Assembly (NCBI GenBank): GCA_050309605.1
Contig: JBNRMN010000047.1
Span: 1-17,686, forward strand
Reading direction: 5' to 3'
DNA length: 17,686 bases
Origin: Anaerohalosphaeraceae bacterium
GTDB taxonomy: Bacteria > Planctomycetota > Phycisphaerae > Sedimentisphaerales > Anaerohalosphaeraceae
In this document: piece after piece, positions 1 through 7,111 of the stretch
How the letters are laid out: each line of letters begins with the position of its first letter
Position numbering within the stretch: position 1 is the first letter of the stretch
Notes under the pieces: generated by a model
The model's input: the letters and a program-made list of their open reading frames with translations, nothing else
Told to the model about the DNA's origin: nothing
Databases searched by the model: none
Program-made: the position numbers and the translations under genes

Positions 1-18
1 CGTTTTGTCAAAAATTTT
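1..18 (+). repeat. Left terminal inverted repeat of the IS
   Basis: cgttttgtcaaaaatttt; positions 6-18 are the perfect reverse complement of 1869-1881. Confidence 0.85.
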
Positions 19-86
19 TCCTATATTTATCTTAAAATCCCTTATATCAAAGGACTTACACCAGTTACTGTTTTTCCCTGTTTTTA

Positions 87-109
87 TTGACTAATTTGGA
101 TTTTTGGAA
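87..109 (+). repeat. Inner inverted repeat, left copy (pairs with 1640-1662)
   Basis: ttgactaatttggatttttggaa versus reverse complement of 1640-1662 ttgacaatttggattttttggaa: 22 aligned identities with one single-base gap in each copy. Confidence 0.8.
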
Positions 110-112
110 AAA

Positions 113-172
113 ATGTGTGGGCGTCGGTTTTAACTTTAAATGCACCAAGCAAATAAAGGAGAGCCCACACAT
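113..172 (+). promoter_or_regulatory. Start-codon-sequestering inverted repeat in the transposase leader
   Basis: atgtgtgggc (113-122) is the perfect reverse complement of gcccacacat (163-172), which covers the SD-ATG spacer and the AT of ATG 171. SD aaggag at 156-161. Confidence 0.65.
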
Positions 173-1637
173 GAAATCAAATCTTTCTCGTTTAATTAAA
201 TGGTTTTGTCGTCACCTTACTTTTAATGATCTCGCTTCCGCTGTCGTGGTTTTCCATGAGATACTCAGCGGTGTCCGTAAAGATATTGAACTAAAGCCTA
301 ATGAAAAACCGCCGCATTATCGTATCTTCCAAGTTGACCCGGTACCACCTTTGCCCGAGCCGCCGGCTGTTATTGTCAAGCCTGCCGAGTCTGACTGGCA
401 AAAGCTGTTAGATCAATACAAGCGTCAACACGGCAAAGACCTTAAACCGGTCAGACGCAGAAAAGGATCACCGCAATTACCGCCGGGCTGTCGCTGCGAG
501 CACTGTAATGCCCCGCGTAAATATCTTTATCTCAATAACGGCAAGCATGCCTCACAAGCACGATGTAAAATCTGTAGCAAGACAAGTCCTACACATCGCA
601 TCCGAAAACAAAGTTCAGCCAAATATTGGTGTCCGCATTGCGGCTCTGCGCTGAGTCAGTGGAAATCAAGCAGCATTTGCACCATTTACAAATGCCCACG
701 GTATAACTGTTCTCATTACCTCGATAAGCTTAAAAGCCTTACCGCCGAAGAGAAGAAACAACGCGAATTACAAAAGTATGATCCCAATTACAAGCTTCAT
801 TACCAGTACCGCGAGTTTCACTTATCACCACAGGACCTGAAAACACAGCGTCCCGAAGGCTGCTGCTCCAAAGTCGATTTAAATCGCATACACAACAATC
901 ACCATGTCGTGGGACTGGTGCTGACATTCACGATCAATCTCGGACTCAGCGCCAGATTGACTGAAAAGGCCTTAAAAGGCATATTCGGCATTCCCATTTC
1001 ACATCAGACGGTGATCAACTATGCGAATGCTGCGGCGGCTAAGTTAGCGCCGCTGGTCGACCGTCACAATCCGGCTCCGACAGCAACAGCGGCAGCTGAT
1101 GAAACTTACATTATCGTCAAGAACTGCTGGCATTATACATGGTTCATTATCGACTCGGTAACAAGGGCTATATGCGGCTATAACCTTTCAACCAATCGAG
1201 ATACGCAACCGGCGTTGGCGCTGCTTTATGACTGCTACGGTCAGCCCGAGCAAAACAGTAAAAAGTCCATGTTGATTACCGACGGAAACCCGGCTTATGA
1301 CACCGCCGTTATGGCATTCAATGCCGGGGCCGAAAACAAGCTTGAAAAGCATACCGTTATCGGCCTTGAGAACCTCGACACCGAAAGCAGTGAATATCGT
1401 TGTTTCAAGCAGCTCGTTGAACGCCTGAACAGGACCTATAAATTTCACACCAGACCCAGAGCCGGTTTCAAAAGCTTCGAAGGTGCTGTTGCACTGACCA
1501 CTCTGTTTGTCGCTTATTACAACTTTATGCGACCTCATTCGGCGATTGGAAACTCCGCTCCGGTTCAGCTTGACTGCCTCAAAGAGGTCACTCTCATGCC
1601 CCAGGCATGGGTGAAGTTTCTTGGGCAAGCTGCATAG
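171..1637 (+). CDS. DDE transposase (IS6/IS240-like catalytic domain) with N-terminal zinc-ribbon extension, 488 aa
   Basis: Catalytic motifs AAADETYI..HYTWFIID, LITDGNPAY and KQLVERLNRTYK; C-terminal YYNFMRPHSA; HTH-like GLSARLTEKAL..ISHQTVINY; Cys pairs CEHC, CKIC, CPHC and CPRYNC. ATG 171 (good SD) is preferred over the TTG at 87 in the ORF track. Confidence 0.9.
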   Translation: MKSNLSRLIKWFCRHLTFNDLASAVVVFHEILSGVRKDIELKPNEKPPHYRIFQVDPVPPLPEPPAVIVKPAESDWQKLLDQYKRQHGKDLKPVRRRKGSPQLPPGCRCEHCNAPRKYLYLNNGKHASQARCKICSKTSPTHRIRKQSSAKYWCPHCGSALSQWKSSSICTIYKCPRYNCSHYLDKLKSLTAEEKKQRELQKYDPNYKLHYQYREFHLSPQDLKTQRPEGCCSKVDLNRIHNNHHVVGLVLTFTINLGLSARLTEKALKGIFGIPISHQTVINYANAAAAKLAPLVDRHNPAPTATAAADETYIIVKNCWHYTWFIIDSVTRAICGYNLSTNRDTQPALALLYDCYGQPEQNSKKSMLITDGNPAYDTAVMAFNAGAENKLEKHTVIGLENLDTESSEYRCFKQLVERLNRTYKFHTRPRAGFKSFEGAVALTTLFVAYYNFMRPHSAIGNSAPVQLDCLKEVTLMPQAWVKFLGQAA

Positions 1638-1639
1638 CC

Positions 1640-1662
1640 TTCCAAAAAATCCAAATTGTCAA
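1640..1662 (-). repeat. Inner inverted repeat, right copy
   Basis: ttccaaaaaatccaaattgtcaa begins at 1640, just after the transposase stop codon (1635-1637), and is inverted relative to 87-109. Confidence 0.8.
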
Positions 1663-1668
1663 AGAGCA
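1656..1668 (-). promoter_or_regulatory. boxA-like antitermination motif, antisense to the transposase
   Basis: The minus strand reads TGCTCTTTGACAA(TTT), versus E. coli rrn boxA TGCTCTTTAACAA(TTT): one mismatch. Confidence 0.45.
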
Positions 1669-1700
1669 CAGTACCAACTATTCCATTCGTGAGTTTGCGA

Positions 1701-1819
1701 GCCGCATAATTTCACAGTTTGCCGAGAATGGGCCTTCCAAAAGCTCGTCGGAGGCAATACTGTTAAATTCTGCGGCGGTGAGATAAGGATAATCTTTGCG
1801 ATAAAAGAATATCCGTTAT
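1701..1819. ncRNA. Candidate structured non-coding RNA/DNA element in the IS 3' end (two long stem-loops)
   Basis: Stem 1: gccgcataatttcacagtttgcc (1701-1723) with ggcaatactgttaaattctgcggc (1753-1776), 21 pairs, 2 mismatches, 1 bulge. Stem 2: ataaggataatcttt (1783-1797) with aaagaatatccgttat (1804-1819). Transcription is not shown. Confidence 0.45.
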
Positions 1820-1868
1820 TCATATTCACACACAAAATTTAAGACGATACGATTTTTCATTCTTTCAT

Positions 1869-1886
1869 AAAATTTTTGACACTACC
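1869..1886 (-). repeat. Right terminal inverted repeat of the IS
   Basis: aaaatttttgacactacc; reads GGTAGTGTCAAAAATTTT inward, and a GG terminus is typical of IS6-family ends. Confidence 0.88.
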
Positions 1887-1992
1887 ACGAGCGGTATGAT
1901 ATAACCGAAATGCCGAGCAAATGCAATGGGACAGCGCTCGAAATTATCGCCGAGCCACTAAGCGGATCAGGGAGAGATTTTTCAACAGCCGA

Positions 1993-2157
1993 GCCGCGCT
2001 GTTGAGCGCGCTGGTGCGTTGCGTCATCGTACAATAGCCGAGCGGCGCAAGCCGCCGGATAATCTGGCGTCTTGGAAAAACGCCCCATCTATTCGCATCT
2101 CCTATCGGGTAGCTTGCGCTGCCGCGCTATTGCGCACGCTGGTGCGCCGCGCTGTTG
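1993..2157 (+). repeat. Dispersed 26-bp direct repeat (2 full copies plus 1 partial)
   Basis: gccgcgctgttgagcgcgctggtgcg (1993-2018) versus gccgcgctattgcgcacgctggtgcg (2121-2146): 23/26. Partial copy gccgcgctgttg at 2146-2157. Confidence 0.7.
2035..2061. repeat. REP-like palindrome with GCAA tetraloop
   Basis: tagccg-a-gcggc-GCAA-gccgc-cggata. Confidence 0.5.
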
Positions 2158-2163
2158 TTTGAC

Positions 2164-2225
2164 TCCCCTCCTTTTCAAGGAGGGGACGTCCTGCGTCAGC
2201 AGGACAGGGGTGGTTGCGTCACCCC
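2164..2225. repeat. REP-like triple-hairpin palindromic element
   Basis: tcccctcctt-ttc-aaggagggga (10-bp stem, 2164-2186); gtcctgc-gtca-gcaggac (7 bp, 2188-2205); ggggtg-gttgcgt-cacccc (2207-2225). Confidence 0.7.
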
Positions 2226-2346
2226 CGGTTCCGCAATAAAAAAATTCAGGATAACATTGTACCCGAAACCGGCCAAAAAGCAAATAAAACCCCCGACGGG
2301 CGATAATGATAAGTAAAATTCACCCCAATTCAAAATTGAATCTACC

Positions 2347-2368
2347 CTCAGTGTCCTCTGTGGTTAAA
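2347..2368 (-). repeat. Short dispersed repeat unit (AACCACAGAGGACACTGAG) immediately after the photolyase stop
   Basis: Minus strand tttaaccacagaggacactgag has an internal ~9-nt periodicity (cacagagga/cactgaggg). From recollection it resembles the repeats flanking GxxExxY-protein genes (not verified). Confidence 0.45.
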
Positions 2369-2370
2369 CT

Positions 2371-3732
2371 TCATCGCCCATCTGATAGCGTTTCGATCCG
2401 CCGGATATAGGCGGTTACATCGAACTTGCGTGCCAGTCCCGCGGTGTTCATATAGCGCACCTTTCCGAAGACGGCACGTTCGCCCCAGGCCCGGTCATGT
2501 TTGCCAAAGCACCAGGCCACCCCCGCATAGCCGTTCGGATCGCGCCCGTCCAGCTCGTATTTATTGTTCAGATACAGCGCCCATTCAAAGCCCTGCTGCG
2601 GCGTTGTTGTCCACTCCAGGATTTTCTTGCCCCAGTACATCCGCATATAATTGTGCATCTTGCCGGTGATGACCATTTCCCGCTGGGCGGCGTTCCAGGC
2701 GTCGTCGTGGGTTTGCGCAGTTTCCAGTTGCTCAAGAGAGTAAAGGTACTCCCGTTTGTCTTTGGCGTGATAATGTAATGTCCGCAGCGCCCACGGCGGC
2801 AGCGCCTTTTCAAAGTCGTCATACGCGGTGTTGTAATACACAAAATTATAGCTCAGCTCCCGCCGCACGATGAGTTCTTCAAGAAAAGCCGCTTTGCCGT
2901 CGGCATCGCTTTGCATTACCGCCAGCGCAATTGTCAACGGCGAAATCTGTCCAAAATGCAGATACGGACTCAGGTTGGATTGGCAGTCCAGCAGGGGGTC
3001 ATTGCGGTCTTTGTCGTAGCGAGCCAGTTTGCGTTGAATGAACGCATCGAGCCGTTTGTGTGCCTGCTCGGTTCCGCCGACAAAGACGGGACTGGCCAAA
3101 ACAGACGTGTCCAGCTTCAATCTGGCCGGCAGTCGGACGTCGTTCACATCGATGCGGCCGGGCGGCTTGACCGCAAGGGCGTTCTTGTGCAGGCGTTGCG
3201 CCCTGAGCGGTATCAAAAAACGATCCTGCTGCCGCGCGATCCGCGGCCGCAGCGTCCCGGCTGAAAAGTTTTCTTTGTCCGAGGCGGTCTCGATCGGCAC
3301 AATCAGATTCGTCGTGACCTCTTCCAGCAAGCAATCCACGGCCTGCGCCACGCGCGTTCGCCATGTGCGCTGACTACGCAAATACCCCTCATCGACCACG
3401 ACCGCATCGGCGCGTCGGGCCAGTTGAATAACGGTGCTATCCGGCTCGCCTTTGACGACGACAAAAGGGATTTTTCGTTTGGCCATCGCCCGTTCGGTCT
3501 GCCGCAATCCCTCAAGCATAAACGTATAATGCCGAAGATTCGCCTCAGGGAAATGGTCGGTTAGTGAAAAACAGACCAGTGCCGGCTTGCCGCGCTGATT
3601 GGCGATTTCAATCGTCCGCTCAAGGGCGTGGTTATCCTCGGCACGCTGAGCGGCCTGCATCCAGTACAGCACATAATCGCGCTGACGCAGGGGGTGATCA
3701 TTGAGCCGCTCTATGCGTTCCGGCTGAATCAT
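2371..3732 (-). CDS. phrB: Deoxyribodipyrimidine photolyase, class II CPD photolyase
   Basis: YVLYWMQAAQRAEDNHAL, SNLSPYLHFGQIS, FLEELIVRREL, GKMHNYMRMYWGKKILEW and LNNKYELDGRDPNGYAGVAWC are class II photolyase motifs. Confidence 0.95.
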   Translation of the reverse strand: MIQPERIERLNDHPLRQRDYVLYWMQAAQRAEDNHALERTIEIANQRGKPALVCFSLTDHFPEANLRHYTFMLEGLRQTERAMAKRKIPFVVVKGEPDSTVIQLARRADAVVVDEGYLRSQRTWRTRVAQAVDCLLEEVTTNLIVPIETASDKENFSAGTLRPRIARQQDRFLIPLRAQRLHKNALAVKPPGRIDVNDVRLPARLKLDTSVLASPVFVGGTEQAHKRLDAFIQRKLARYDKDRNDPLLDCQSNLSPYLHFGQISPLTIALAVMQSDADGKAAFLEELIVRRELSYNFVYYNTAYDDFEKALPPWALRTLHYHAKDKREYLYSLEQLETAQTHDDAWNAAQREMVITGKMHNYMRMYWGKKILEWTTTPQQGFEWALYLNNKYELDGRDPNGYAGVAWCFGKHDRAWGERAVFGKVRYMNTAGLARKFDVTAYIRRIETLSDGR

Positions 3733-6700
3733 TCAAAGGCCTTTGTACATCTTCCTGAATGAGTGTGATAACCGCTTGCTTATCGACCGGCGTCAAGGTG
3801 TTGTAGTCATTGATTTGCCAGTCGAACCGACACAGACTTTTGTAGTCGCACCAGCGGCACGGCGTGTCTTTGTTGAGTCGATAAGGCTTCGCAGCAATAA
3901 CGCCGGAACGAATCCGTTCGATTTGCCGGGCCATCAGCCGCTTGGCCCAACTGAGCAGTGCGTCAAATTCGTCCGGCCTGACCGCGCCGCTGCTGCCGTA
4001 AAAACTGTAAGGCGAGCCGTCGTTCGCAACGTAAAAATTATAAAATCGACTCCATTGACGGGCGGTTTTGTCCAGCGTCTCGGCATACGCGCCGTTAAAG
4101 ATCCCTCTGGCTTTATAGGGAAAGGTGTGCCGCTGTGTCTCGATCATATCCGGAGTCCGAGTAACCGCATTGTACTCAAACGGCAGATAAAACGCCCCGG
4201 CGATGACATCGGCCCGGATGTGTTCAGGCAGATACGGCACGGCCGGCAAATACGTCAAAAGCTGAATGTCCAGCCCGTAAAACAGTCTGGCCCAGGCAAT
4301 CGAACGCGGCGTTCGCTTAAAATCAAAGATTGCTGCGATCCTTTGCCCGTCAATCTCAGCCACATCCACCCGATCAATACGCCCTTTGATTCGGACGGTG
4401 CTGTCCAGAGGGAATTGAAATGACAGTTCCGCCGCCGTCTGTCGCAATGCGCCGGCCCGTTCCAGTTCGGCCAGCGCCGCCACAAACTGACGCACTGTCT
4501 CGCAGGCGCATTCAATGACATAGCGGTGGTGCATCTGACGCCGCATAAAGGCGGTCATTGTCGGACTCTGCTCGATGGTTTCCTGAATGATCTGATCGCA
4601 CAACGTTGCCAATGCTTCAGTCGGTGCACTCGCCCATGTCCAGCCGCGCTGCTGAAGCCGGCCGAACAGGGTTTCAATCACAGTATGATAAAAACTGCCC
4701 ACATCCACCGGCTCGAATCGCAGAAGCGGCCGCTTTTCCAATTCGAGGATATATGCGGCAAAATGCTGATACGGGCAGGCCGCGAAGGTCTCCAGCCGCG
4801 ATGCGGAAAATGCAGAAATGTGCTTAAATTGCCGCAGGGCCGATTCGCTCGTCAGTGCCGCGGCGTTGGTATAAGTCAGCGCGCCCATCACGTGTTCAGC
4901 CGCCGCTCGAATCGATTCGCACGACGACCGCAGCGCCGCATGCAGCGCAAAGGCCGCTCCATCGGTCGGGCCTTGCGGCGGACGGTCTTTGCCGCAGGCG
5001 GCCGCGAGTCGTTCGGCCAATTCCGCAACGCTTTGGCTTTCCAGTATTTTCATGTTGCTGTGCATCGCCCGTGGCCGGACGTCGGTAAACAAACGGCTGA
5101 GCCGCTCAACCCAGGTCGAGGGTACCACCGGCGCGCCTTTTTCGTCCTGTTGCGGATAACTGACGGCGATGTACTCCGACGCCCGCGTCAGGGCGATATA
5201 GGCCAGATAGTGGCGTTTGGAAAGCTGCTGCGTCAGCGGATCGGTCAATTCCAGCCCCCCACTCTGAGCCGCCTGCCGTTCACCTCGTCCCAGAAGATCC
5301 GTGGTCGATAGCGGGGTAGGAAACTGATGTTGGGCGGCGCCGACCAGAAACATCGCCCGAATATCGGGATGACGGCTGCGCTCAATCGAACCGACCAGCA
5401 CCTGATCCAGCGTCGGCGGAATCAGTTTGATCGTCAGCGACGACAGGGCATCGGCCAGCGTCGAGACAAACACCGCCGTCGGCTCCGGATGTCCGCCGAA
5501 TACCCGCTCCATTTCATCCAGCACCGCCGTCAACTGCGTCCACGTTTGCCGATGTCCCTGCGCATCGGTAGGGTCGTCCTGTGCCCATGTCGCCAGCCGC
5601 TTGCGGGCCTCGATCCGTTCCAGAAAATCCCACACCGCCCGCACAAACGCCGACGCCTCAAGCGGTTTGTCCTCGGCATACAGCGATTCGTGCAGAGCAG
5701 ACAGCGCCGCGGTGACCATCTGTCGAAGCGGTTCTGCCGCGGCGTCTTCAGCCGGTTCGTCAGCCGCGGCAAACCGCCACGGCATCGGCGCCGTCCAGTC
5801 TTCCCGTTCAATTCCGTATTTCAGACAGTACCGTTCCAGCCGGTCTATCTGCTCGTCCGCCACGCCGGTCAGGCCGCTTTTCAGATAGCATAGAATATCC
5901 GTCGTGGCAAACTGCTCGGCCGCCGCCAGGGCCGCCTGCAGGGTCTCGGCCAACGGATGATGCCGCACGGCCGCAGGGCGGTCCAGAAAACAGGGGATGC
6001 CGCAGCGTGCAAAGGCCGACTCCAGATAGACGCCATACGTATCCATGTCCGGCACGGCCACCGCAATCTGTCGGTAGCGATACCCCTGGTGGCGTACCAG
6101 TTCGCAAATTCGCCGCGCCGTCCATTCGGCCTCGCCGCGCACATCCGGACAGCAGACCACCTCCACGGCTCCATTGGCCGATGCCGGTTCGCTCGTGTCC
6201 GTCGCCAGCGCCGATTCAATGGATTCCAGCGCAGGCGCGTCAGCATAACGGGCGGGGCGGCTCAAAATCCTCGGCGCCAGGATGTCAAACCGGCATTTGC
6301 GAAAAATGCCCAGCAACTCTGCATAAGTCTGCTCGGTGGTGTAAAACAAATCCGCCGGATCAAGTGTCTCAGGGTCGGTGTTGTCCAAATCGAGTTTTGC
6401 CGGGTCCAGACACAACGCGATGTGCATCGTTTTGCAATGCCGCGCTATGTCAACCAGCATCTCGCGTTCCTGCACCGTAAAACCCGAAAAGCCGTCCACC
6501 CAGATCTGCGCCTCTTTGATAAACGGCGACGCGGCGATATCCCGCCGGGCAAGGGTCAATTCCGCGTCCGGGTTGCGCAATGCCTCTGATGTCTTGAAAA
6601 AAGCGGCATATTCTGAATAAATGATGGCAATATCCCGCCATTTTCGGGTTGTTGTGCCGCCGGGATTTTCTCTTTCAAGCTGCTCGGCCAGTGCGGCGAC

Positions 6701-7111
6701 TTGTTCAGGTGAGCAGTCGGCCTGCTGAAGTTCGGTCAGCAAGCCGCTGATCCGTTCGGCCAGCCCTGCATGACGGGCGGCGGTGCGGTACAGGCTCAGC
6801 CGTTCGGCCTGTTCCAGCAGGATGCGATAGGCAGCCATTTGCCGCCCCAGCCGCGACAGTTCCGCACCGGTTCGCAGCCGCCGACTGAGCCAGAATACCA
6901 GCCGATTAAACGACAGCACCCGCAGCCGACTGAACCCCGCCACGCCCGGTTGAGCCAGCACCGCCCGCTCCATTTGATAGGTCGCCTGTTCCGGCGTCAG
7001 CAGAACCAGCGGCGCATCGCCCCCGGCCCGCAGCGCATCAGCCGCCGCCTCGACACACCGCGTCGTCTTGCCCGTTCCGCTGCGCCCCAGAATAAAACGT
7101 ATTTGCCCCAT
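3698..7111 (-). CDS. addB: ATP-dependent helicase/nuclease subunit B (AddB)
   Basis: N-terminal FILGRSGTGKT Walker A, LLTPEQATYQME and VLSFNRL. C-terminal RecB-type nuclease FSASRLETFAACPY..KGRIDRVD..IFDFK with Fe-S ligands (C..CRWCDYKSLC). 1137 aa matches Bacillus-type AddB size. Confidence 0.92.
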   Translation of the reverse strand: MGQIRFILGRSGTGKTTRCVEAAADALRAGGDAPLVLLTPEQATYQMERAVLAQPGVAGFSRLRVLSFNRLVFWLSRRLRTGAELSRLGRQMAAYRILLEQAERLSLYRTAARHAGLAERISGLLTELQQADCSPEQVAALAEQLERENPGGTTTRKWRDIAIIYSEYAAFFKTSEALRNPDAELTLARRDIAASPFIKEAQIWVDGFSGFTVQEREMLVDIARHCKTMHIALCLDPAKLDLDNTDPETLDPADLFYTTEQTYAELLGIFRKCRFDILAPRILSRPARYADAPALESIESALATDTSEPASANGAVEVVCCPDVRGEAEWTARRICELVRHQGYRYRQIAVAVPDMDTYGVYLESAFARCGIPCFLDRPAAVRHHPLAETLQAALAAAEQFATTDILCYLKSGLTGVADEQIDRLERYCLKYGIEREDWTAPMPWRFAAADEPAEDAAAEPLRQMVTAALSALHESLYAEDKPLEASAFVRAVWDFLERIEARKRLATWAQDDPTDAQGHRQTWTQLTAVLDEMERVFGGHPEPTAVFVSTLADALSSLTIKLIPPTLDQVLVGSIERSRHPDIRAMFLVGAAQHQFPTPLSTTDLLGRGERQAAQSGGLELTDPLTQQLSKRHYLAYIALTRASEYIAVSYPQQDEKGAPVVPSTWVERLSRLFTDVRPRAMHSNMKILESQSVAELAERLAAACGKDRPPQGPTDGAAFALHAALRSSCESIRAAAEHVMGALTYTNAAALTSESALRQFKHISAFSASRLETFAACPYQHFAAYILELEKRPLLRFEPVDVGSFYHTVIETLFGRLQQRGWTWASAPTEALATLCDQIIQETIEQSPTMTAFMRRQMHHRYVIECACETVRQFVAALAELERAGALRQTAAELSFQFPLDSTVRIKGRIDRVDVAEIDGQRIAAIFDFKRTPRSIAWARLFYGLDIQLLTYLPAVPYLPEHIRADVIAGAFYLPFEYNAVTRTPDMIETQRHTFPYKARGIFNGAYAETLDKTARQWSRFYNFYVANDGSPYSFYGSSGAVRPDEFDALLSWAKRLMARQIERIRSGVIAAKPYRLNKDTPCRWCDYKSLCRFDWQINDYNTLTPVDKQAVITLIQEDVQRPLNDSAGTHRAAQ

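Follow-up and report, generated by a model that had tools for sequence, protein, structure and literature searches.

The window analysed here is a stretch of 17,686 nucleotides from a contig of an Anaerohalosphaeraceae bacterium, and its position 1 is the exact left end of an insertion sequence (IS). The bounds of the element were established using other copies from the same genome. Four other contigs end in the window's first 126–127 bases and two contain the last 125–128 bases of the element; in the alignment of the flanks the sequence common to the copies runs from position 1 to 1886. Two reconstructed copies are bracketed by 8-bp target duplications, ACGAGCGG for the window's copy and AAAGTCTC for L002/L007. 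The first-pass annotation had described the stretch 1638–1868 as a structured non-coding 3' end of approximately 250 nt. The right end lies at 1886, not at 1868, hence the 3' non-coding end comprises 1638–1886 (249 nt). A further 170 nt at the 5' end are non-coding. The features of the element are listed in Table 1.

Table 1. Features of the insertion sequence and its right flank (window coordinates)
Feature	Position	Strand	Basis and remarks
Complete IS6-like insertion sequence with an extended transposase	1–1886	+	1886 bp; multi-copy; bounds set by other copies (four left ends, two right ends)
Left terminal inverted repeat (CGTTTTGTCAAAAATTTT)	1–18	+	13-nt perfect core, 6–18 vs 1869–1881
Promoter-like site TTGACT, 16 nt, AAAAAT	87–114	+	Consensus scan only; the spacer is the left inner repeat
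Left inner inverted repeat	93–110	+	18 nt, 89% complementary to 1640–1657
Transposase gene, 488 aa, Zn-ribbon/DDE	171–1637	+	Sole long ORF in 1–1886
Right inner inverted repeat, then conserved TTGTCAAAGAGC motif	1640–1671	+	Repeat search
Conserved hairpin module	1700–1776	+	AGC-stem, GAGAATGG (1724–1731), GCC-loop (1732–1742), GCTCGTCGGAG (1743–1753), stem-GC
Second stem-loop	1783–1819	+	MFE and centroid folds of the window; treated as element-specific
Two subterminal TTTCAT repeats just inside the right end	1853–1868	+	Read from the sequence
Right terminal inverted repeat, GGTAGTGTCAAAAATTTTAT read from the end	1867–1886	-	Flank alignment and repeat search
Right copy of the 8-bp target-site duplication ACGAGCGG	1887–1894		Also found as the last 8 bases of the contig C17 (L005) flank, immediately preceding the left end

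The terminal repeats are imperfect, and homologues of the element are bounded by the same GTnnTGTCAAAA core. The right end begins with GGTAGTG and the left end with CGTTTTG, i.e. G at position 7 is present in both and GG in the right one only. The inner repeat pair is found at the same positions in homologues and is a family-wide feature, its sequence being specific for each element. Its left member occupies the whole spacer between the two promoter-like boxes, an arrangement suggestive of an operator-like DNA site; by eye, the same layout of promoter-like site and inner repeat was observed in L087, L090 and L095. Throughout the inspected 3' ends of homologues a motif similar to TTGTCAAAGAAC follows the stop codon at 15–25 nt, and pairs resembling TTTTCAT occupy the place equivalent to that of the subterminal repeats.

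The transposase matches the Pfam families DDE_Tnp_IS240 (PF13610, 2.1e-12, 47.8 bits against a cutoff of 27) and rve_3, and contains invariant Cys pairs in its N-terminal half. With the NCBIfam model transpos_IS6 it scores 94.5 bits and does not reach the cutoff of 125. Using tblastn, 30–42% identity to unnamed genes on Firmicutes plasmids and 23% identity to Clostridium perfringens genes labelled "IS6 family" were observed. More than 1000 relatives of about 486–490 aa with approximately 60% identity were found in metagenomes, often on contigs of 1.8–2.2 kb. Among 61 related genomes searched, the transposase is present in the window's own genome and in none of the 60 others.

The size given for the main bacterial IS6 group is 789–880 bp (PMC6807381). 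Members of this group, of about 0.8 kb with short non-coding ends, are unlike the element in the window with its 1886 bp and long ends. Longer IS6-like elements are described as ISfinder clade i or clade VIII of Harmer and Hall (ISTet2, ISHahy6, ISHco2) and clade h/VII (ISCpe7), with a Zn finger and a further N-terminal domain, transposases of 453–454 aa, a length of 1713–1761 bp and target-site duplications of 8 bp (PMC6807381, PMC7986276). Compared with these descriptions, the element in the window is similar in the IS240-type DDE domain, the 8-bp target duplication, G at position 7 of both ends, a size in the range of 1.7–1.9 kb and the long, Cys-bearing N-terminal extension, and differs in the lengths of the protein (488 aa) and of the element and in the NCBIfam IS6 score under the cutoff. 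A term-based search of these two papers yielded no passage on a structured non-coding end.

To describe the 3' ends in the transposase family, homologous loci were gathered from genomes (79) and metagenomes (55). In most of them the core of the outer repeat (TGTCAAA / TTTGACA) lies approximately 130–175 nt before the start codon and 160–280 nt past the stop codon, hence the long 3' end is a trait of the family. The median length of the 3' non-coding end is 231 nt in 80 distinct homologues (92 before near-identical ones were collapsed), where for loci without the right-end motif (16 of one added set) a fixed 217–260 nt or the bases available were used. A hairpin of at least 20 pairs is present in 38 of the 80 homologues and starts at a median distance of 75 nt past the stop codon. 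The stem sequences are wholly different among homologues, and the apices fall into few types: type A is that of the window, type B, CGTATAAA...TTTATGCCG, belongs to Victivallales-type relatives, and a third group consists of long perfect hairpins. In several lineages there is no hairpin, namely in the Pontiella-like ones and in most members at 40–45% identity.

The RNA fold of positions 1638–1887 has an energy of −59.9 kcal/mol on the plus strand (z = −4.13, 0 of 200 shuffles as good) and −59.8 kcal/mol on the minus strand (z = −1.35, 18 of 200 shuffles as good). The long stem-loop noticed at 1701–1723/1753–1776 is recovered by RNAfold and contains 21 Watson-Crick pairs, two mismatches and one bulge. 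The pairing proposed for its interior was likewise confirmed: TGGGC (1729–1733) pairs with GCTCG (1743–1747) via two G.U pairs, on the plus strand only. The second stem-loop, while predicted in the window, does not appear in the MFE folds of the five type-A relatives inspected in full (L008, L009, L010, L021 and L022). The first one is far beyond chance, since it is conserved with compensatory changes.

The stem-loop at 1700–1776 represents a single instance of a conserved hairpin module, a discrete unit whose stem positions covary. The module is approximately 78 nt long and consists of a variable stem arm, the invariant apex GAGAATGGGCC-loop-GCTCGTCGGAG and the second variable arm. The apex, which is almost invariant, includes a GA/GGA internal loop, a 2-bp step, a bulged A and a helix of 5–6 bp with two conserved G.U pairs. 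The apical loop, compared by eye, follows one pattern family-wide, C-rich and then A/T-rich. The foot, likewise compared by eye, is conserved as 5' AGC ... GCGG(G) 3'. All features defining the module family, that is, a paired variable stem, the apex GAGAATGGRC / GYTCGTCGGA with its U.G and G.U pairs and the foot AGC...GCGG, are present in the window, where the covariance model built for the module (R1) scores 52.5 bits on 1700–1776.

Covariation was assessed in two alignments. In the first (A2; 12 distinct type-A hairpins, 82 columns, RNAalifold structure of 23 pairs), 87.7% of cells pair, compared to 70.2% in shuffles (0 of 500 reach the observed value) and 41–46% with slid partners, and 18 of the 23 pairs show double changes. 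The second (A4) contains 43 matches fitted to the model, including one minus-strand echo and near-duplicates. Here 92.2% of cells pair vs 66.1% after shuffling, the covariation score is 0.568 vs 0.166, and double (compensatory) changes are observed in all 16 lower-stem pairs. In the apical helix of this alignment the U.G pair is kept in 41 of 42 rows and replaced by U-A once, the G.U pair is kept in 37 rows and replaced by G-C in four, and a G-C pair is changed to A-U in four rows.

The module has a preferred strand. When 100 sources were scanned with R1, only the type-A hairpins and four weaker variants were found, all on the transposase-sense strand; minus-strand echoes score 20–27 bits vs 52–85 bits for the module strand. 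As a count of G-T vs A-C mismatches over whole palindromes is confounded by loop positions, the strands were compared using the lower stem and flanks with the apex replaced by a tetraloop. The module strand then folds better in 25 of 30 distinct modules, by −3.56 kcal/mol on average, with 62 G.U pairs vs 35; for the full module, the better fold is on the module strand in 26 of 30. The conserved G.U pairs and the strand-biased folding point to a single-stranded form of the module strand. Folded single-stranded DNA (ssDNA) tolerates G.T pairs as well, and thus the bias does not separate RNA from ssDNA.

The module matches no Rfam family. In the search of window positions 1–2400 against Rfam 15 with E up to 1 nothing overlaps the module, the sole listed match being RMST_1 at 220–270 on the minus strand (E 0.96), and for eight module loci searched with E up to 0.1 there is no match on the module. 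Kink-turn, loop A of the hairpin ribozyme, attC, sigma-54 promoter, ssDNA promoter and CsrA site were considered and dropped for poor fit. A small ORF starting in the apex (ATG at 1728) was rejected as well: the distance from ATG to CGTCGG, read by eye, is 18, 18, 18, 19, 17 and 17 nt, a spacing that does not preserve the reading frame.

Within the window's own family the module may instead reside in the 5' non-coding region (L095, L104, L116/L063), and the same outer-stem sequence is found in L093 and L107, where the module is at the 3' end, and in L095, L104 and L116, where it is at the 5' end. All 12 distinct copies of this family are sense to the transposase. In L095 the module lies approximately 55 nt upstream of a promoter-like TTGACA...TATAAA. 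A 262-bp transposase-less derivative from one genome comprises both ends, the promoter region and the module directly behind it. In the window's own genome R1 finds one place only, the IS.

The module is also present in other IS families. In a Desulfospira genome (G061) that also has the window's IS family, there are nine identical copies in a 1.4-kb IS3-type element, located downstream of orfB, on the opposite strand and approximately 125 nt from the end. In the order of this genome the pattern GAGAATGG-N8-24-CGTCGGA matches in 94 of 301 genomes, with approximately 175 matches vs approximately 19 in the reversed control (hand count). Examined by eye, 19 of 30 loci returned by this pattern adopt the module fold. 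The remaining ones are chance matches, of which several lie inside genes, e.g. rpoB and fusA.

In IS110 elements the module was found upstream of the transposase gene, antisense and facing outward, in four genomes (G279, G114, G139 and G476), the motif start lying approximately 100 nt away from where the repeat unit ends; typing by neighbouring genes gave one upstream sense copy (L183) and two downstream antisense copies (L233 and L173), and Pfam matches together with repeat boundaries identified further IS110 carriers (L164, L181 and L232). An IS21 element in G043, a genome from the same order as the window's, carries the module downstream of istB, antisense and 177 nt from the end. In an ISL3 element (L186, neighbour typing) it is upstream and sense. 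Other contexts are the neighbourhood of a tyrosine recombinase gene (L165) and a repeat unit with a 405-aa ORF without a Pfam match (G105). The copies examined were 4 of 10 identical ones in G043, 5 of 11 in G279 and 4 of 6 in G139.

Altogether, elements from at least five transposase families carry the module in a non-coding end. In the typed carriers (IS110, IS3, IS21, ISL3 and the window's family) it always lies between the transposase gene and an IS end, within approximately 100–180 nt of the latter. Both orientations relative to the transposase gene occur across the IS families. With respect to the end closest to it, the module points outwards in the window, in IS110 and in G296; it points inwards in IS3 and IS21, in G105 and G086, and where the window's family has it on the 5' side. 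The suggested structured 3' end is borne out as a conserved, covarying and strand-biased hairpin, while its supposed restriction to IS6-like DDE elements is not, as IS110, IS3, IS21 and ISL3 have it too.

The first-pass annotation had proposed that the element may encode a regulatory or end-recognising, guide-like RNA whose apical loop reads the element's own inner repeats, by analogy with bridge, seek and omega RNAs. The matches behind this proposal were reproduced: GCCTTCCAAAA at 1732–1742 is an exact copy of 1637–1647 (repeat search), TTTTGGAA is present at 102–109 in the left inner repeat with the loop complementary over 8 nt, and 0 of 300 shuffled loops match as well as the window's. Across the family, such likeness is at the background level, which makes the proposal highly improbable. 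Of the 39 distinct elements with a hairpin, the window alone has a high score (11/11); the 38 others score 4.07 with their own right inner repeat vs 3.84 with the repeats of other elements, and for the left inner repeats of all 39 elements these values are 4.54 and 4.42. The identity of loop and inner repeat is not conserved, the 11-mer being reproduced in no relative, and L009, L010 and L022 have one common inner repeat and three different loops. The C-rich and then A/T-rich pattern of the loop can explain a chance likeness to the C/A-rich inner repeat, and the likeness in the window is probably coincidental.

Complementarity of other kinds was not observed either. The stem arms taken as guides to their own IS (11 elements) yield longest matches at the shuffle level, the exception in L010 being a T-run. 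The loop as an anti-Shine-Dalgarno sequence gives −5.04 kcal/mol with its own translation start vs −5.28 kcal/mol with those of others, and no signal is seen with the last 120 nt of the leader (−8.38 kcal/mol own, −7.37 kcal/mol others). Further arguments against a guide RNA are the occurrence of one apex in five transposase families and the location of the left inner repeat in the promoter-like spacer, so that it may not be transcribed. Judging from the loop/repeat comparison, the guide-RNA reading appears largely refuted and is nearly excluded. The candidate classes also fail individually: the enzyme in the window is of the DDE/rve type and not a DEDD recombinase of the IS110 type, as bridge or seek RNA would imply, and no TnpB/IscB-type nuclease gene, as expected for omega RNA, adjoins the transposase (DDE/rve), the sole long ORF of the element.

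Most simply, the module can be read as a host-factor site. In E. coli, sites for IHF, Dam or DnaA are common to unrelated ISs, and unrelated ISs in the same hosts could share the present apex in the same way. A possible form of this reading, which we put forward tentatively, is an accessory RNA or folded single strand common to many ISs: unrelated elements would each have acquired and kept the module because its apex recruits one widespread putative host factor controlling transposition, transposase expression or survival of the element.

As regards the mode of action, we favour, again tentatively, the possibility that the module is a cis-acting boundary element, acting at the RNA level on transcripts that cross the IS end and binding a putative host factor. 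The active form would be the module strand by itself, unpaired with its complement and most likely RNA. A transcript running into or out of the element would fold into the hairpin, and its invariant apex would be bound by the putative factor, e.g. an RNA-binding protein or a double-strand RNase, which would then stop, cleave or destabilise the transcript. Expression of the transposase could thereby be uncoupled from the neighbouring genes, loosely similar to the retroregulation by lambda sib.

Several observations agree with such a boundary element. The sense module is located upstream of a promoter-like site in L095 and downstream of the gene in the window; it is kept behind the promoter region in the 262-bp derivative; in one clade the stems are framed by A/T. 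RNA-library contigs of two studies cover 1633–1878 and 1626–1883, a weak hint, given that these Logan contigs come from relatives with 95–99% (X15) and approximately 90% (X18) identity, that contigs show neither the ends nor the strand or abundance of a transcript, and that DNA may be present in RNA libraries. The absence of a U-tract and of a terminator site at the window hairpin argues against it, and the outward antisense copies in IS110 (G279, G114, G139, G476) fit least well, as they would need a putative internal antisense promoter. Any orientation can be fitted to the role of a boundary, and thus orientation does not test it.

An ordinary intrinsic terminator of the transposase gene, acting as a bidirectional insulator in other ISs, would be another explanation of the same hairpin. 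In the window the hairpin starts 64 nt past the stop codon, and in the Desulfobacterales-type L008, L009, L010, L021, L022 and L155 an A-run and a T-run border the stem. This explanation nevertheless seems improbable. A terminator scan of the window yields no site at 1700–1790. A T-tail (at least five T in the 8 nt past the predicted helix) is absent from the window and from all 30 distinct modules (0/30; 36-nt flanks only), and one of the 30 has a 3' arm that ends in a T-run. Termination also leaves unexplained the invariant asymmetric apex across five IS families and the L095 copy, which precedes the promoter-like site.

Instead of RNA, the folded form could be ssDNA: the module strand would fold during replication or during copy-out or replicative transposition, and a host DNA factor would recognise it as a site for priming, restart or a recombination cofactor. 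Transposition of IS3, IS21, ISL3, IS110 and IS6 elements, the carrier families, includes replication-dependent steps. The strand bias with conserved G.T-compatible pairs, the location always within approximately 100–180 nt of an IS end and the persistence of the module in the transposase-less derivative, which needs cis-acting sites only, are consistent with this explanation, and antisense contexts need no promoter under it. On the other hand, the module may point either way with respect to the nearest end, and therefore a mechanism tied to one transferred strand does not fit. We consider the ssDNA variant unlikely.

It is also conceivable, with still lower probability, that the module is a selfish palindromic hitch-hiker, that is, a small mobile or recombining cassette residing in tolerant IS ends with no benefit to the IS. 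This would account for its presence in unrelated IS families, for its location at either the 5' or the 3' end within one family with the outer stem shared, and for both orientations relative to the gene, and the conserved foot (AGC...GCGGG) looks as termini of an element would. Contrary to this expectation, free-standing copies are nearly absent, the examined copies in seven genomes (G061, G043, G279, G139, G114, G105 and G296) being inside repeat units, and no mobilising enzyme is linked to the module. The uniform sense orientation of the 12 distinct copies in the window's family is not expected for a hitch-hiker, and the long-term compensatory evolution of the stem, together with the invariance of the apex, speaks for selection.

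Most REP copies are free-standing, lie between genes and are linked to RAYT genes. With REP/REPIN and MITE-type repeats the module shares the length of approximately 80 nt, a long imperfect palindrome and a conserved foot, and the 262-bp derivative keeps it. However, unlike REP/REPIN sequences, the traced copies of the module reside inside repeat units, which are ISs where typed, and in the window's own genome the module is found in the IS only. A REP-like palindrome was therefore rejected.

The module resembles the lambda sib/tI retroregulator and transcriptional insulators at IS ends as a long imperfect hairpin beside a recombinase gene. Its effect could differ with the transcript that passes through the hairpin, and it may work in a similar way to these systems. 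It differs from lambda sib in having no U-tract and in an apex that is conserved across elements, which is not required for sib; the role of RNase III or of termination is putative here.

Bridge, seek and omega RNAs belong to a single enzyme family each and have loops that covary with the target and donor DNA. Like bridge RNA/seekRNA of IS110/IS1111 and omega RNA of IS200/605, the module is a structured part of a non-coding IS end, conserved with covariation, and some IS110 elements carry it too. Unlike these RNAs, it has an invariant apex, five enzyme families as carriers, antisense orientation in the traced IS110 cases, no complementarity to its own IS and no Rfam match. In the literature we found no description of the module; two 2026 bioRxiv preprints on the mining of non-coding elements were searched by term, and their supplements may list such a cluster.

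The module thus belongs with the structured non-coding elements borne by ISs, and there is a substantial chance that it is an unprecedented host-interface module shared across families. ISs are usually described as a transposase gene and two ends, and omega and bridge RNAs have made structured non-coding parts a major topic. Here one hairpin is kept by at least five mechanistically different IS families in several bacterial groups. If the reading as an accessory element of many ISs is true, it would be the first nucleic-acid module of bacterial ISs to serve as a "host interface" across families. If a host factor is bound, the module would mark a point of control common to many mobile elements of anaerobic environmental bacteria, with the apex as a handle to this factor. 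Were the module only an insulator or a hitch-hiker, it would still be a useful marker for the annotation of IS ends and a warning against taking every IS-borne hairpin for a guide RNA.

A blastn search with the module against plasmids returned chance-level matches of 19–27 nt only. In the window's phylum (401 genomes) the type B apex pattern AATAAA-N8-30-CTTTATGCCG gave 19 matches, approximately the level of the reversed control, and is uninformative. The canonical form of the module is rare in the same genomes, being present in G000, G007, G043, G476 and G511, with a variant in G383. In addition to its IS21 copies, G043 contains a weaker variant (L230, 33 bits) located behind an AraC-type gene.

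Two metatranscriptome contigs from two different studies, X15 (247 nt) and X18 (260 nt), both coming from close relatives of the insertion sequence in the window, have nearly the same extent as the 3' non-coding region, corresponding to window positions 1633–1883. The hairpin loop of the X18 variant differs from that of the window at positions 1735 and 1736 and by an insertion after position 1733.

The 3' non-coding regions of loci from this IS family contain a second hairpin type with the apex CGTATAAA(A/T)AG-[small stem-loop]-GGCTTTATGCCG, its carriers including the collected loci L014, L016, L018, L019, L043, L044, L059, L087 and L115, among others. TGTCAA/TTGAC, which forms the core of the terminal repeats, also occurs in the stems of these hairpins. 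Five further loci (L093, L107, L095, L104 and L116) have hairpin modules with a common outer stem, AGTTRTCnACAG...CTGTGGRYAACT, located in 3' or 5' regions of elements whose transposases are just 45–68% identical to that of the window. One arm of this stem includes a 9-mer with what we take to be a resemblance to the DnaA box.

The module was also found in other contexts (see the table). Besides the hairpin module, the short derivative retains the two ends and the region with the promoter and inner repeat; it has no transposase gene. On one side of the IS3 copy, the Rfam model Intron_gpII matched with 68.7 bits; the open reading frame on the other side, judged by reading its sequence, looks like an intron maturase. 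In the repeat unit of genome G105 (loci L205–L207) the module precedes a 405-aa open reading frame by about 150 nt. The latter had no Pfam match at 1e-4 and may be a transposase of an untyped kind.

Features of the studied element, its surroundings and related loci
Feature	Location	Strand	Comment
Inner inverted-repeat pair	window 78–114 and 1640–1671		flanks the transposase gene on both sides
TTT(T)CAT repeats (two)	window 1853–1868; 3' ends of L008–L086		immediately internal to the right end
CCCCTCC...GGAGGGG hairpin	window about 2165–2186		
Photolyase gene	window 2371–3732	minus	downstream of the IS
AddB-type nuclease gene	window 3698–7111	minus	downstream of the IS
Transposase-less derivative of the IS family	L155 (G062:C67), about 1376–1637	reverse	262 bp
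Module-bearing IS3 copy within a group II intron	L157, 1050–1126 and 2772–3074	minus	

The TTT(T)CAT repeats are present at the right end only; they recur throughout the family, including in members with 40–45% identity. They may be additional, putative transposase-binding sites that render the ends of the element unequal.

In the window, a promoter-like site (TTGACT-16-AAAAAT) has the left inner-repeat arm as its spacer; its right-hand counterpart is located 3' of the transposase stop codon and is preceded by TTGACA on the minus strand. Since the positions of the inner repeats are constant across homologues while their sequence differs from element to element, the pair looks like an operator-type DNA site, possibly an autoregulatory one.

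The element has inserted into a G+C-rich region between genes (window 1895–2330), in which imperfect repeats of GCGCTG...CTGGTGCG segments were seen by eye.
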